A stretch of DNA of 61,697 nt from Vampirovibrionales bacterium (GCA_046080605.1 JBJTUH010000094.1:1-61697), one strand, 5' to 3'. Counted from the stretch's first letter, positions 464-60,893 are shown. Numbers and translations are program-made. Notes: generated from the sequence alone by a model not told the origin.

Positions 464-691
464 ATGATGATTTCCTCCAAAAACACTCATACTACACGCT
501 TTACCGTTCTCAGCGTCGCTCAAGCGTCTGAAACCCTAGACTGTAATGCCTCAGAAAGATTGGCGTATCAAGGTCACCCAGAGACTACCTTCTCTGCCAT
601 GACGACGGCACACACCCGTAACTACCAACCTTCTGATTTATCAACCTTTGATTTCTCCGTAGTACAGGGGTGCTTTATTACCAAATACTAA
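464..691 (+). CDS. hypothetical 75-aa protein (uncertain coding status)
   Basis: Starts ATGATG like many genuine genes here and is preceded by an ATGA-overlapping mini-ORF (432-467). No family recognised. Ends 1 nt from the convergent fliR stop. Confidence 0.3.
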   Translation: MMISSKNTHTTRFTVLSVAQASETLDCNASERLAYQGHPETTFSAMTTAHTRNYQPSDLSTFDFSVVQGCFITKY

Positions 692-692
692 G

Positions 693-1502
693 TTAAGGCT
701 GAAGACGAAAAAACTCCTGTAAAATATGTTCCATCTGTTCCATCATGGTAGGTAGGGACATCATCAGAATCCCCAACGCAAGCACTGGCTTAATCGTGTT
801 ACTAATTTGAAAGACAGGGATTTGCTGTGCTGTACGGTTTAAAATACCAAGCATCACATCTAAAGCCAATGTTACCACCAAAGTAGGAGCACTCATGGCA
901 AGTGCGACAGGCAAAATGCTATTAATACTCTCAACGACAAGATCCATATTCAGGGTTTCCAATAAAGTATTTTGTAGCATAAACACTGGAATATGTTGAA
1001 TACTCGCACTCAGTGCTTCAATGAGTTGGTGCATTCCACCAATGCTAATAAAAAGCCATGTGGCAATCGCAAGAAAGACGGGTTCAAGAATCATACTTTG
1101 AGACCGTGTTGAGGGGTCAAACATCGCCGCCATATTCAAACCTGCTTGGTTTGTAATGAGGTTTCCTGTGGCACCAATGGTTTGAACGGCAAGGTTTGCC
1201 ATCATGCCTAGAATAAGTCCTACAGTCGCATTTGCAAAAATTTGTAGCACCATAAACGTGGGGCTTACCTCGGTCAAAGCCGTATATTGCCGTATGAGTT
1301 CAGGGTGTGCCTGCAACATACATACGCATACCATGACCCCTAACGCTGTTTTCATTTGCCCAGGAATATCTTTTCTGCCAAACACAGGAGCCGTGTGCAT
1401 AAAGGCAAGCACTCTTGAGAGAAGCAACAACCCTGTATCAACCCATGGTTGGTAGGTTGTGTACAGGGTACCATAGGCTTGCAATGCTGGCTCAAATGCC
1501 AT
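693..1502 (-). CDS. fliR: type III export gate protein FliR/SctT family (paralog 1)
   Basis: 269-aa polytopic membrane ORF immediately after fliP-fliQ. Its ATG overlaps the fliQ stop (TAATG, 1500-1504). N-terminal segment ...APVFGRKDIPGQMKTALG... is FliR-like. Confidence 0.8.
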   Translation of the reverse strand: MAFEPALQAYGTLYTTYQPWVDTGLLLLSRVLAFMHTAPVFGRKDIPGQMKTALGVMVCVCMLQAHPELIRQYTALTEVSPTFMVLQIFANATVGLILGMMANLAVQTIGATGNLITNQAGLNMAAMFDPSTRSQSMILEPVFLAIATWLFISIGGMHQLIEALSASIQHIPVFMLQNTLLETLNMDLVVESINSILPVALAMSAPTLVVTLALDVMLGILNRTAQQIPVFQISNTIKPVLALGILMMSLPTMMEQMEHILQEFFRLQP

Positions 1503-1855
1503 TAGGGTCTATCCTCTCCTAATTTAGGAGGCTTACTTATCACATAACGAGGGGTTGCCGTATGACTATCTAGGACTGTTTCACGTCCTTCAGGAATCTG
1601 CTGAAAAGCAATTTGCATACTTTCTACCAGATAATCCCCCATCATATCCAGTAAAATAGGGCCTCCTACAATTAAAATAACCCCGATAATCAAAATCTTA
1701 GGAACCGTTGTTAAGGTTTGTTCTTGTAATTGGGTGACAGCTTGAATCACACCAATCACAAGCCCGATAATGGCAGCTAAACTAATCATTGGCACCGAAA
1801 TCAGGAGTACCAAACTAAAGCCGTGTTTCACATGTTCAAGTAAAATATCTTGCAT
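1502..1855 (-). CDS. fliQ: type III export gate protein FliQ/SctS family (paralog 1) with a C-terminal tail
   Basis: FliQ core ...GLVIGVIQAVTQLQEQTLTTVPKILIIGV.... I prefer the ATG at 1855 over the ORF-track GTG at 1882. About 30 aa extend beyond normal FliQ length. Confidence 0.85.
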   Translation of the reverse strand: MQDILLEHVKHGFSLVLLISVPMISLAAIIGLVIGVIQAVTQLQEQTLTTVPKILIIGVILIVGGPILLDMMGDYLVESMQIAFQQIPEGRETVLDSHTATPRYVISKPPKLGEDRP

Positions 1856-1925
1856 ACAAACGAGAATGTCCTTGCCTAACACTGAAAACTTTTAGATCAA
1901 AGCACCTGAACTATCACACAAACGA

Positions 1926-58406: not shown

Positions 58407-58684
58407 GGCTCAGAATGGCTCCCTTCTTCTTCTTCTTTTTCTCAGGATAGAAACGCTTTAACCCCACACATCAGCACTCGTACACACGATAAACCTTATA
58501 ACCCACAGAAGCAAACGCCTCATCAAACGATGTTCGATAGGCTTTCAAAATGCACGTTTCAACAAATACCCCAGACGTAAAAAACTCAAAACTTTTATAA
58601 TTTATTTATATCTTAAGATGCAACAATAGGATTCATGTTAAGTATAATGATTTTATTAAAAAACACAAAGGGAAGTTTTAAAGA

Positions 58685-58702
58685 TGTAACAACAACGTTA
58701 CA
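58685..58702. promoter_or_regulatory. perfect palindrome TGTAAC-N6-GTTACA (candidate operator)
   Basis: TGTAACAACAACGTTACA lies in the AT-rich divergent region between 57018..58406 (-) and 58884..60893 (+). Confidence 0.3.
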
Positions 58703-58758
58703 AAACTACAAATCCTAGAGATTTTGCTTTAGTGCGAGGCAATTTTCTCCGAGATATC

Positions 58759-58887
58759 ATGTTAATAGTGTTAGGTGAAGTTACCTCAGTCATCACTATG
58801 ATGTTGAGCGTCTTAAAACGTAAGGCGAAATGTAATAATACCCTTGAAGAGATGATACAGAAAAGTAGAGAGTTTTTACCCGTATGA
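58759..58887 (+). CDS. candidate 42-codon upstream ORF / small membrane peptide
   Basis: MLIVLGEVTSVITMMLSVLKRKAKCNNTLEEMIQKSREFLPV. A hydrophobic stretch is followed by KRKAK. Its TGA (58885-58887) overlaps the ATG of the 669-aa gene. It is below the ORF-track length cut-off, and coding status is unproven. Confidence 0.25.
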   Translation: MLIVLGEVTSVITMMLSVLKRKAKCNNTLEEMIQKSREFLPV

Positions 58888-60893
58888 TGATTAGCATTGG
58901 TGGCAATGGCGGCACTGAGTTTAGCAATTTATTTGTTAAGCGTCAACAGCCTTTGGGGCAAAATACCCCCTTGTCTTATCAACCTAGCCTAACAGGTCAA
59001 GAGTTGCTCAATCCAGATGCTATCGAAATTTTCAATGCGCCCAATGCGCCAAAATCATCACAACAAGTTCCTTCAACACGTACATTTGGACAGTTGTACG
59101 ATCAAACAGCAACCCCTGACGCAACCATCAGTGGCAAAAGTTCTATTTTAGGAAACAACGTACAGACTCAAGAAACACCCCCCAAAGTAGCCTCTAAAAT
59201 TACAACCTTTGGGCAACAACTCACCGTTACATATCCTAATACTGGAGACCCGAAAACCTCAACTACTGTAACGTTTGGACAACCCGAAACGCCAGAGACA
59301 AACGCTTCTACCTCCTTTAAACAAACACTTGTTTCCTTAGGACAAGAAGCCAATAATACCATTCAAACAAAACAACGGGAACCACAAACACCCGTCACTG
59401 AGCCACAACCTGAGGTACCACCTACACCTGTCTCGGAAACACCCAAACAACCTGAAACTCGCCCTAACACACCAACGACTCCTAACACACCAACGACTAC
59501 TGAAGCACCTAAAACAGAGGTGAAACCCGAAACACCTCAAGGCGATGCCACTCCAGGTGCAAAACCTGGCGAGGTTAAAACCGAGCCCAGCCCTGTCCCA
59601 ACACCTGAGGTCAAGCCACCTGAGCCTCATATTAGTCTTGAGCTTAAAGCATTACAAGATAAGCTTACCGCTCAAGAGAAGCAATCACAATTGCAAGCTC
59701 AGTTACCAGAAAGCTTATCAGCTTCTAAGACACCAGAAGCACTCAAGAAGGAACCTAGCATTGCCCCTAAAGACACTATCGTGTCACAACCTCAAACTGG
59801 GCAACTGACAGGTAGTAACACAAACTTAGGCGTAGGTTCATCTCAAGGGAATGACGGGTTAAATACTGAAGCCTTCAATGCAAGTACCAGCACGCCATTC
59901 CGTCTTGGAGAAAACGGGTTCAGTGGTATTTTTGGCTCAGAAACCCCTGGTTCAGCACCAGACCCTTTCAACCTGACAGAAACAGCAAACTTTTCACTGT
60001 CAACGGAAAATGGGCTACCCCCAAGTACTTCCTCAAATATCATTCAAACAAGTCAAGGGTTACTTAAGCCTGGAAGCAACCCCTTCGTACGGCTCGGAGA
60101 TACCACGTCCCTAGGACAATCAACACTGAATAATGCCTCGTTGCAAATTGGACGAAATAACAATTTTGGTACCCCTATACCGAATGGGCTTGTTGCGTCC
60201 ACCAGTGGCTTGATTTCTCCTACATCAACACTGCGTTCTAACACACCCCAGCCTCAAGCATCCCTCGAAGAAGTTGCAGGTACCTTTGCGACCGCTCAAG
60301 AAGAACTAAACGCCACCAAAAAAGAGGTTCCCCCTAAAGTGGCAACCACAGAAAAGCCTGTGGTTGTTCCTACAACACCAAGTATCACGACTGATGCAAA
60401 AATCAATCAAGTACAGTCTCAATTCGTAGAGCCTTTACTAGGGGCTGAAGGGTCTCCTAGTAAGCAAGTACTACAACAAACTGAGAAACAAGCAAACGTT
60501 CTACAACAAGCCTCTAACGTAGCTTCTTCCCTTCAATTAAAGCCTGACCCAACGAAGCTGCTTGCCATGACCCGTTTCGTAGGACAGCAAAGCTTTAGCA
60601 AAGCTGAACACCGAAGAGGCACCACTGCCAATGGTCAAGGACAACAAGGTAAGAGCCAAGAAGAACGCATTGCTAAAATCAAAGAGCAACGTCAAAATCA
60701 TACTGACGGTGTTGCCGCCTACACAGCGACGATTAAACAGCAACAAGCTGAAAGTGTTGCAGGTACCTTAACTGGGGATACCTCTGGTGATGCGACCAAA
60801 GTTGCCGTAGGCGAAGTAGGGAAAGGATTTATCGGAAGCCAGAGTGTTTCAGAGGAAATGGCTCAGATTCTAGGCGACTTTGCGACGGTTTAA
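58884..60893 (+). CDS. hypothetical 669-aa low-complexity protein (TFGQ repeats, Pro/Thr/Glu/Lys-rich block, S/T/N/G/Q-rich regions, no signal peptide)
   Basis: Uninterrupted ORF with an ATGATG start. Contains an exact 18-bp tandem duplication (PNTPTT x2). Confidence 0.6.
   Translation: MMISIGGNGGTEFSNLFVKRQQPLGQNTPLSYQPSLTGQELLNPDAIEIFNAPNAPKSSQQVPSTRTFGQLYDQTATPDATISGKSSILGNNVQTQETPPKVASKITTFGQQLTVTYPNTGDPKTSTTVTFGQPETPETNASTSFKQTLVSLGQEANNTIQTKQREPQTPVTEPQPEVPPTPVSETPKQPETRPNTPTTPNTPTTTEAPKTEVKPETPQGDATPGAKPGEVKTEPSPVPTPEVKPPEPHISLELKALQDKLTAQEKQSQLQAQLPESLSASKTPEALKKEPSIAPKDTIVSQPQTGQLTGSNTNLGVGSSQGNDGLNTEAFNASTSTPFRLGENGFSGIFGSETPGSAPDPFNLTETANFSLSTENGLPPSTSSNIIQTSQGLLKPGSNPFVRLGDTTSLGQSTLNNASLQIGRNNNFGTPIPNGLVASTSGLISPTSTLRSNTPQPQASLEEVAGTFATAQEELNATKKEVPPKVATTEKPVVVPTTPSITTDAKINQVQSQFVEPLLGAEGSPSKQVLQQTEKQANVLQQASNVASSLQLKPDPTKLLAMTRFVGQQSFSKAEHRRGTTANGQGQQGKSQEERIAKIKEQRQNHTDGVAAYTATIKQQQAESVAGTLTGDTSGDATKVAVGEVGKGFIGSQSVSEEMAQILGDFATV
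59463..59498 (+). repeat. exact 18-bp tandem duplication inside the 669-aa gene
   Basis: CCTAACACACCAACGACT occurs twice (59463-59480 and 59481-59498), encoding PNTPTT PNTPTT. Confidence 0.9.

Follow-up and report, generated by a model that had tools for sequence, protein, structure and literature searches.

Why should about a third of the genes in a stretch of bacterial DNA begin with two to five consecutive ATG codons in one reading frame? The question is raised by JBJTUH010000094.1 (GCA_046080605.1), a complete contig of 61,697 nucleotides (nt) with 45% G+C, hereafter called the window, which derives from a freshwater metagenome and belongs to an uncultured Vampirovibrionales bacterium (class Vampirovibrionia/Melainabacteria). 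An earlier note, made from the sequence alone, had listed 17 such runs at gene starts and judged them far too frequent for chance, since Met at codon 2 is expected in only a few percent of genes. Every coordinate and copy number in that list was reproduced. The observation is confirmed, and it is both stronger and wider than the note knew.

Gene starts were counted in two ways. A curated list of 47 genes (Pfam annotation gave ~47 genes in the window) was used beside a mechanical gene model, in which the first ATG of each stop-to-stop open reading frame (ORF) of at least 100 amino acids was taken from raw ORFs, not from annotations. The background set for the mechanical model consisted of 159 other Melainabacteria loci, comprising 2.4 Mb and 1999 first ATGs. 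In the curated list, 17 of the 47 genes (36%) started with (ATG)2-5, giving Fisher p = 3e-19 against the background and binomial p = 9e-15 against a Met frequency of 2.9%. The mechanical model found runs at 15 of 45 first ATGs in the window (six x2, seven x3, one x4 and one x5), compared with 23 of 1999 (1.15%) in the 159 loci, where none was x3 or longer (Fisher p ~1e-16). The claim of a frequency far above chance was thus upheld. The comparison of starts with internal Met codons that the earlier note had proposed was run on the available loci, and an ATG was followed by another ATG at 36-39% of starts, compared with 5.6% of internal Met codons and ~4% of intergenic ATGs.

The trait is wider than one genus. 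Three genomes, contributing ~62, 40 and 20 kb, supply the data on trait-bearing lineages. The sister species is represented by the Lake Mendota contig Ga0454390_0000396 and by an ENA contig from another sample (JBIIZQ01 is the Lake Mendota sister metagenome-assembled genome, MAG); it shares 70-80% DNA identity with the window, its PyrG falls in the same 90% cluster, and runs were present at 11 of its 28 genes. The GyrB of the window shared 88% identity with that of a Lake Mendota MAG and 66% with that of Vampirovibrio chlorellavorus. In a second lineage, L295 (JGI 3300045069 contig Ga0492696_0000379, 41% G+C), a 20-kb locus around an FlhB homolog 42% identical to that of the window carried runs, mostly x3, at 6 of 18 genes, including ndk and the genes of an MFS transporter and a SpoIIE phosphatase. 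The FlhB proteins of L293 and L295 were 42-43% identical to that of the window, and starts of MMMM or MMMMM also occurred in FlhB homologs only 51%, 43% and 42% identical to it. Compared with the ~2,000 genes of the 159 Melainabacteria loci, the run rates of the trait lineages gave Fisher p values of ~1e-19 to 1e-35. The runs are restricted to certain lineages: the nearest outgroups examined had them at 1 of 6, 0 of 16 and 1 of 21 genes, and V. chlorellavorus and the Gastranaerophilales were at the background rate. In the FlhB tree, the five run-bearing proteins were located within one group of seven as two well-supported subclades, with two single-Met lineages interleaved; the group as a whole was weakly supported. 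Two label changes were needed on this tree, and 0 of 500 shuffles needed as few. One of the interleaved single-Met lineages, L297 (53% G+C), lacked the trait across its locus. On this distribution, the trait either is ancient and was lost in some lineages, or has arisen twice. A scan of metagenome contigs with PyrG returned only relatives of at most 64% identity, none of which had the trait.

The 17 runs of the window are the following:

464..469, + strand: start of an orphan gene of 75 amino acids, (ATG)2; the Logan gene call is also 75 amino acids long
2586..2594, - strand: start of fliP paralog 1, (ATG)3, with the TGA stop of the upstream gene inside the run
3287..3292, - strand: start of an orphan gene of 233 amino acids, (ATG)2, preceded by an in-frame TTG
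5242..5250, + strand: start of an acidic orphan gene of 164 amino acids, (ATG)3
10511..10519, - strand: start of sepF, (ATG)3
12014..12022, + strand: start of a flgF/G-like rod gene, (ATG)3
16467..16475, - strand: probable start of secY, (ATG)3, with an earlier in-frame ATG at 16583
20900..20905, + strand: start of bcsB-like gene 1, (ATG)2 followed by GTG
27899..27904, - strand: start of an OmpR-type response regulator gene, (ATG)2
29238..29252, - strand: start of flhB, (ATG)5, with x4-x5 in the orthologs of four related lineages
30158..30163, - strand: start of fliR paralog 2, (ATG)2, with a single ATG in the sister species
36960..36968, + strand: start of icd, (ATG)3
38840..38851, + strand: start of gyrB, (ATG)4, also x4 in the sister species
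41404..41409, + strand: start of an orphan gene of 362 amino acids, (ATG)2, 8 nt after gyrB
46324..46332, - strand: start of a PGM/PMM gene, (ATG)3, x2 in the sister species
47677..47685, + strand: start of pyrG, (ATG)3, x4 in the sister species, the last ATG being the canonical Met of relatives
58884..58889, + strand: start of an orphan gene of 669 amino acids, (ATG)2

A GTG or TTG stood beside the run in 2 of the 17 cases, which is about the chance level.

The positions of the runs support their being true translation starts. In 14 of the 17 cases, the run was the first ATG, GTG or TTG after the upstream in-frame stop codon. Relatives of PyrG begin with M[GSPA]STKYIF and the PyrG of the window with MMMSSTKYIF, and in the same way relatives of FlhB begin with MS..DKTEKPT and the FlhB of the window with MMMMMSDTDGKDEKPT. 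In both proteins the last ATG of the run aligned with the canonical Met, and the other ATGs are therefore additions upstream of it. For gyrB, the stretch from the upstream stop to the conserved domain offered a single alternative start, a GTG seven codons in. The Pfam domain coordinates of Icd, the response regulator, FliP and SecY were compatible with the run as the start, and translation of secY from the earlier ATG at 16583 would add 36 amino acids that are Cys-rich and unlike protein. The earlier claim that the runs sit at the N-termini of their families holds on this evidence, and the accompanying claim of real starts, as opposed to ORF-caller artefacts, is supported.

An artefact of assembly, polishing or gene calling could be suspected, since the sequences are MAGs and gene callers disagree on the choice of ATG: the public call of the window pyrG (556 amino acids) starts from the third ATG, those of gyrB (851 amino acids) and flhB (370 amino acids) start from the first, and that of the sister-species pyrG starts from the first of four. 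However, independent Logan contigs of the source run showed neither a substitution nor an indel against window positions 28122-47400, a part that contains the x5 and x4 runs, and a Logan contig over positions 1-3781 yielded the same MM and MMM proteins. In addition, the same feature was present in independent assemblies from other lakes and species, and raw ORFs gave the counts. An assembly or gene-calling artefact is effectively refuted by these three lines of evidence, leaving it a negligible probability.

Selection is the likeliest cause of the runs, judging from their composition, lengths and conservation. The competing explanation is a mutational process specific to start codons, in which ATG slippage or 3-bp footprints, left by an element that enters start codons and excises again, would lengthen the start under little or no selection, the extra Met being harmless. 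The strict contiguity of the runs and their 3-nt steps between orthologs, as in repeats, would be in keeping with it. Copy numbers differed between orthologs, being 3/4 for pyrG, 3/2 for the PGM gene, 1/3 for cbiX, 1/2 for the HAD gene, 2/1 for fliR and 5/4 for flhB, and the runs therefore change in steps of 3 nt. Internal Met-Met was also mildly raised (5.6%, compared with 3.1% in outgroups), as was intergenic ATGATG (~1.9-fold over expectation). Nevertheless, neutral ATGs, whether intergenic or internal, were doubled 6-9 times less often than start codons, and no excess of other repeats was found. ATG-class repeats made up 16 of the 27 period-3 runs of at least 9 nt, the total density of period-3 runs was 44 per 100 kb compared with 50-65 per 100 kb in outgroups, and other N-terminal codons were doubled at 3.3%, compared with 2.2% in gene bodies (p = 0.13). 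General triplet slippage was ruled out because only the ATG class is in excess and other N-terminal doublets are not raised; mobile-element footprints were rejected because no repeat family was found in the 62 kb of the window. The pooled run lengths were 13 of x2, 15 of x3, 5 of x4 and 2 of x5, so that the commonest length is three and the distribution is not a monotonic decay from two. Further signs of selection came from individual genes: the flhB run was x5, x4, x4, x5 and x5 across five lineages, being held at this length down to 42% protein identity, and the gyrB run was x4 in both the window and the sister species despite unalignable upstream DNA. A mutational origin with little or no selection is accordingly regarded as quite unlikely.

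The sequence context of the starts indicates how such selection could act. According to the earlier note, the upstream regions mostly lack a well-spaced Shine-Dalgarno (SD) sequence, and this stood only in part: a GGAG, GAGG or AGGA 4-mer was found in only 30% of window genes, at 7-16 nt from the first ATG, but 30% do carry it. Elsewhere, the modal distance of the SD-like core was 7 nt in the Gastranaerophilales and 8-10 nt in other Vampirovibrionales. SD-like motifs were rarer in the trait lineage than in either of these groups, and the nearest outgroup, L168, had clear GGAG sites. Positions -1 to -6 were strongly pyrimidine-rich in the window, with purines at 19-28% at -2 and -1, and the SD-like cores were weak and stood unusually distant from the ATG, at 10-14 nt. 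Two upstream motifs were noted besides: GGAGTC recurred at about -16 before fliP, icd and sepF, and in L295 an SD-like AAGGA(T) motif lay 9-12 nt upstream of the starts. Leaderless mRNAs were considered and rejected, as the -10 promoter hexamer occurred at the right distance only at chance level (TANNNT ~5-10 nt upstream in 3 of 25 run genes and 2 of 25 single-ATG genes, with 9% expected by chance). No RNA run containing the window or the sister species was listed. Among 58 curated ATG starts of the window and the sister species, 35 (60%) had A at position 4 of the coding sequence, compared with a gene-body baseline of 25.9%. ATG as codon 2 accounted for 27 of these 35 starts, and in single-ATG genes A was found at position 4 in 8 of 31 cases (26%), equal to the baseline. 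The stop codons of 47 window genes were TAA in 32, TAG in 9 and TGA in 6.

The explanation that we tentatively prefer, while stopping short of calling it probable, is a function at the level of initiation, in which redundant in-frame start codons go together with the AUGA/UGAUG start-stop units that the run itself contains, in a lineage whose SD sequences are weak and distant. The start codon would be duplicated in tandem in 3-nt steps, and the duplicates would be kept by selection at translation initiation. A weak, distant SD together with pyrimidine-rich last leader bases would leave the mRNA loosely positioned on the small ribosomal subunit, and two to five in-frame AUGs would then offer several equivalent targets for the initiator tRNA within one reading frame. 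Because each AUG except the last precedes an A, it would form an AUGA unit, in which a +1-frame UGA is overlapped by a further AUG (UGAUG), and a ribosome arriving or starting out of frame would be released on the start site itself, with an in-frame AUG on either side. We infer both that the benefit lies at initiation, not in the protein, and which AUG is actually used. Among the causes suggested in the earlier note, start-codon redundancy for SD-independent initiation is the best remaining candidate; however, the SD of run genes is not weaker than that of single-ATG genes.

Several results weigh against a function at initiation. The predicted SD strength averaged -4.3 kcal/mol in run genes and -4.0 kcal/mol in single-ATG genes, so that a missing SD is not compensated gene by gene. 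The predicted RNA structure was similarly unaffected, at -7.1 kcal/mol with the run and -7.4 kcal/mol with the run collapsed to one ATG (p = 0.70). Runs were present in 4 of 11 tightly coupled operon-internal genes, the same share as overall. Met frequencies at codons +1, +2 and +3 were 39%, 23% and 10%, falling to ~1.4% beyond (+4 to +9); the extra ATGs are thus strictly contiguous, and scattered nearby AUGs are not favoured. Such contiguity fits an origin by duplication and is no demonstration of a 'landing pad'. Moreover, Met has a single codon, so that selection on the protein and selection on the mRNA are not separable.

Termination-reinitiation was another cause proposed in the earlier note, by way of the +1-frame TGA built into ATGATG. 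As the primary driver, ribosomes translating a +1-frame upstream ORF or the preceding gene would stop at the UGA in AUGAUG and reinitiate there. In the window, an ATG-started +1-frame ORF ended in the TGA of the run in 8 of 17 cases, compared with 2 of 17 in the +2 frame, and the fliP run contains the stop codon of the gene that ends at 2591, which is one clear stop/start overlap. Four leader mini-ORFs themselves start with ATGATG, namely 8509-8565 (- strand, 18 codons), 46329-46415 (- strand, 28 codons), 58798-58887 (+ strand, 29 codons) and 38678-38752 (+ strand, 24 codons), and those from 8565, 46415 and 58798 end in a TGA overlapping the downstream starts 8512, 46332 and 58884. Termination-reinitiation at AUGA has also been shown in vitro in E. 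coli. However, only 2 of 10 sister-species runs had an upstream ORF of this kind, and in the pooled data an ORF ended in the TGA of the start at 10 of 27 runs, compared with 8 of 29 single-ATG genes in the same frame. The upstream ORFs of pyrG and the PGM gene were not conserved in the sister species, and at 9 of the 17 window runs the +1 frame was blocked by a stop 0-7 codons upstream with no ATG between. In addition, A at position 4 alone would supply the UGA, yet single-ATG genes had no excess of A. The proposal is consequently not supported as a general cause, and reinitiation as the primary driver appears distinctly improbable.

The third cause offered in the earlier note was a Met-rich N-terminal tag. 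A Met-Met(-Met) N-terminus could be wanted for itself, to block methionine excision, to buffer oxidation or to act as a recognition tag. The evidence for selection fits this explanation as well as it fits a role in initiation, and the runs are independent of SD strength and operon position, as if the mRNA context were irrelevant. Avoidance of Met at codon 2 has been attributed to methionine excision (PMC5850271), and altered N-terminal processing could flip the sign of selection. Against this, the genes concerned have no function in common (gyrB, pyrG, icd, secY, flhB, ndk, an MFS transporter and orphans), and ortholog copy numbers vary (3/4, 3/2, 1/3, 1/2, 2/1 and 5/4) though one extra Met suffices to block excision. 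The residue that follows the run favours excision to the same degree as in single-ATG genes (A/S/V in 12 of 17). Furthermore, ATGATG was also dense in intergenic DNA, with 15 occurrences in 8.9 kb of the window and 14 in 7.7 kb of the sister species, which is ~3 times denser than in the outgroups (~0.55 per kb), and there it heads mini-ORFs that are unlikely to encode functional proteins. Selection on the protein is therefore considered unlikely. Of 13 intergenic ORFs headed by ATGATG, 5 had an MML(L) start, and intergenic ATGATG may mark unannotated small ORFs. Alternatively, the runs might serve as a global throttle or methionine sensor, in which two to four elongator Met codons would tie clearance of the start to charged elongator tRNA-Met, and with it the expression of a third of the genes to the supply of methionine, in a predatory, possibly auxotrophic bacterium. 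The involvement of many housekeeping genes, the contiguity with the start and the conserved length in some genes would agree with this indirectly; methionine starvation, however, would limit initiation anyway, and such a role is very improbable.

No published report of genome-wide tandem start codons was found in literature searches, and the earlier note knew of no description of such a signature either. Known systems share some of its properties. A is enriched at position 4 in 99% of bacterial genomes, where AUGA was proposed as a trap for +1-frame ribosomes, and avoidance of Met at codon 2, attributed to methionine excision, holds across 651 bacterial genomes (Abrahams & Hurst 2017, PMC5850271). 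In vitro, A at position 4 (A4) was beneficial only when RF2 was present and a UGA lay directly at the start, which agrees with termination-reinitiation (Kohl et al. 2022, PMC9841429). The runs resemble this A4/NUGA start-stop signature in that each of their ATGs but the last precedes an A, giving AUGA with a +1 UGA, in that A is enriched at position 4, here supplied nearly all by the codon-2 ATG, and in that UGA is still used as a stop (6 of 47). They differ in that the known signature is carried by any codon starting with A (Lys, Thr, Asn, Ser) while Met is avoided at codon 2, whereas here A-starting codons in general do not carry it: Met is repeated up to five times in 36-39% of genes, and single-ATG genes lack the position-4 excess. 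The (AUG)n tract would be best described as concatenated AUGA units, that is, an extreme, Met-based variant of the A4 signature combined with start-codon redundancy.

The ambiguous AUGUG/GUGUG sites of E. coli (Kohl et al. 2022) likewise place two canonical start codons side by side, but theirs overlap by one base, involve two frames and occur in ~50 genes, whereas those described here occupy one frame in a third of genes. Since the ATGs of a run share one frame, ambiguity of the start costs only a Met. Translational coupling by stop/start overlap (ATGA, TGATG) is similar in that the runs contain both overlap types, with the fliP case and several short leader ORFs ending in runs as examples; it differs in that an upstream ORF in the matching frame is lacking at most runs, that runs are not commoner within operons and that the upstream ORFs are not conserved. 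Tandem (fail-safe) stop codons downstream of leaky terminators are modestly enriched and need not adjoin. They also make a punctuation codon redundant by in-frame repetition, but at termination, and literature searches found no counterpart for start codons. Trinucleotide repeats and contingency loci share the short tandem repeat and the unit-step change of copy number between close relatives. In contrast to a contingency locus, the ATG repeat is a 3-nt in-frame unit, so that it cannot act as an on/off switch for a gene. The enrichment is confined to the ATG class, with no general excess of repeats, and almost entirely to starts, and some runs have persisted across deep divergence. No variation of run length was seen within the sample, as far as contigs reveal it, although copy number does vary between species.

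The window also encodes two flagellar or type-III export-gate sets, sepF, secY-adk, two bcsB-like genes, icd, gyrB, recF, pyrG and ispF; no tRNA or Rfam features were found in it. Several other sites were noted during the analysis. The orphan gene 26305-27072 (+ strand) contains an in-frame ATGATGATG at codon 65 (26497-26505), which could be a true or alternative start. Between this gene and the convergent gene 27155-27904 lies a 54-nt near-perfect hairpin at 27087-27140, with 27-nt arms of 96% complementarity and no loop, which is probably a bidirectional terminator. TTGTTG provides the first start-like codons of two orphan ORFs, at 14127-14132 (- strand) and 35087-35092 (+ strand), the first ATG lying 31 and 10 codons downstream, respectively; this is possibly a non-ATG version of start doubling, or chance. 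The internal MMMM of fliP paralog 1 at codon 187 (2025-2036, - strand) we take to be the Met-rich loop that is conserved in FliP and to have no connection with the runs at gene starts. Phages sharing the signature were sought by scanning viral contigs for (ATG)5; apart from GAT/poly-Asp repeats, this gave a single Lake Mendota contig, and its run does not begin a gene. In the viral contig IMGVR_UViG_3300023184_000058 (L199), 13 kb hold eight (ATG)5-9 tracts, none of which begins a long ORF; they look like GAT (poly-Asp-type) low-complexity repeats unrelated to the runs at gene starts. In L297, infC at 19709-20746 was called from a GTG with 345 amino acids, about twice the usual length of IF3, and may have a long N-terminal extension or be an over-long call.

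How a start codon is chosen without a strong SD is an open question, and in this lineage over a third of genes have apparently been rewritten alike by selection, which runs counter to the avoidance of Met at codon 2 that is seen across bacteria. It is possible, though we hold this more loosely than the initiation-level function itself, that an undescribed start-site signal of contiguous in-frame AUGs, which partly replaces the SD and the A at position 4, evolved in a clade of freshwater Vampirovibrionales, either once and then with losses or on two occasions. One to five AUGs in native leaders provide a testable natural variable for start selection, for NUGA 'frameshift correction' and for N-terminal processing. 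For databases, the disagreement of annotation pipelines on the choice of ATG makes protein N-termini inconsistent; if the AUG-tract signal is real, gene finders would need a rule for it, and ATGATG could flag unannotated small ORFs. Such a signal would further imply a lineage-specific change in the way in which the ribosome, the initiator tRNA or the initiation factors select the start.

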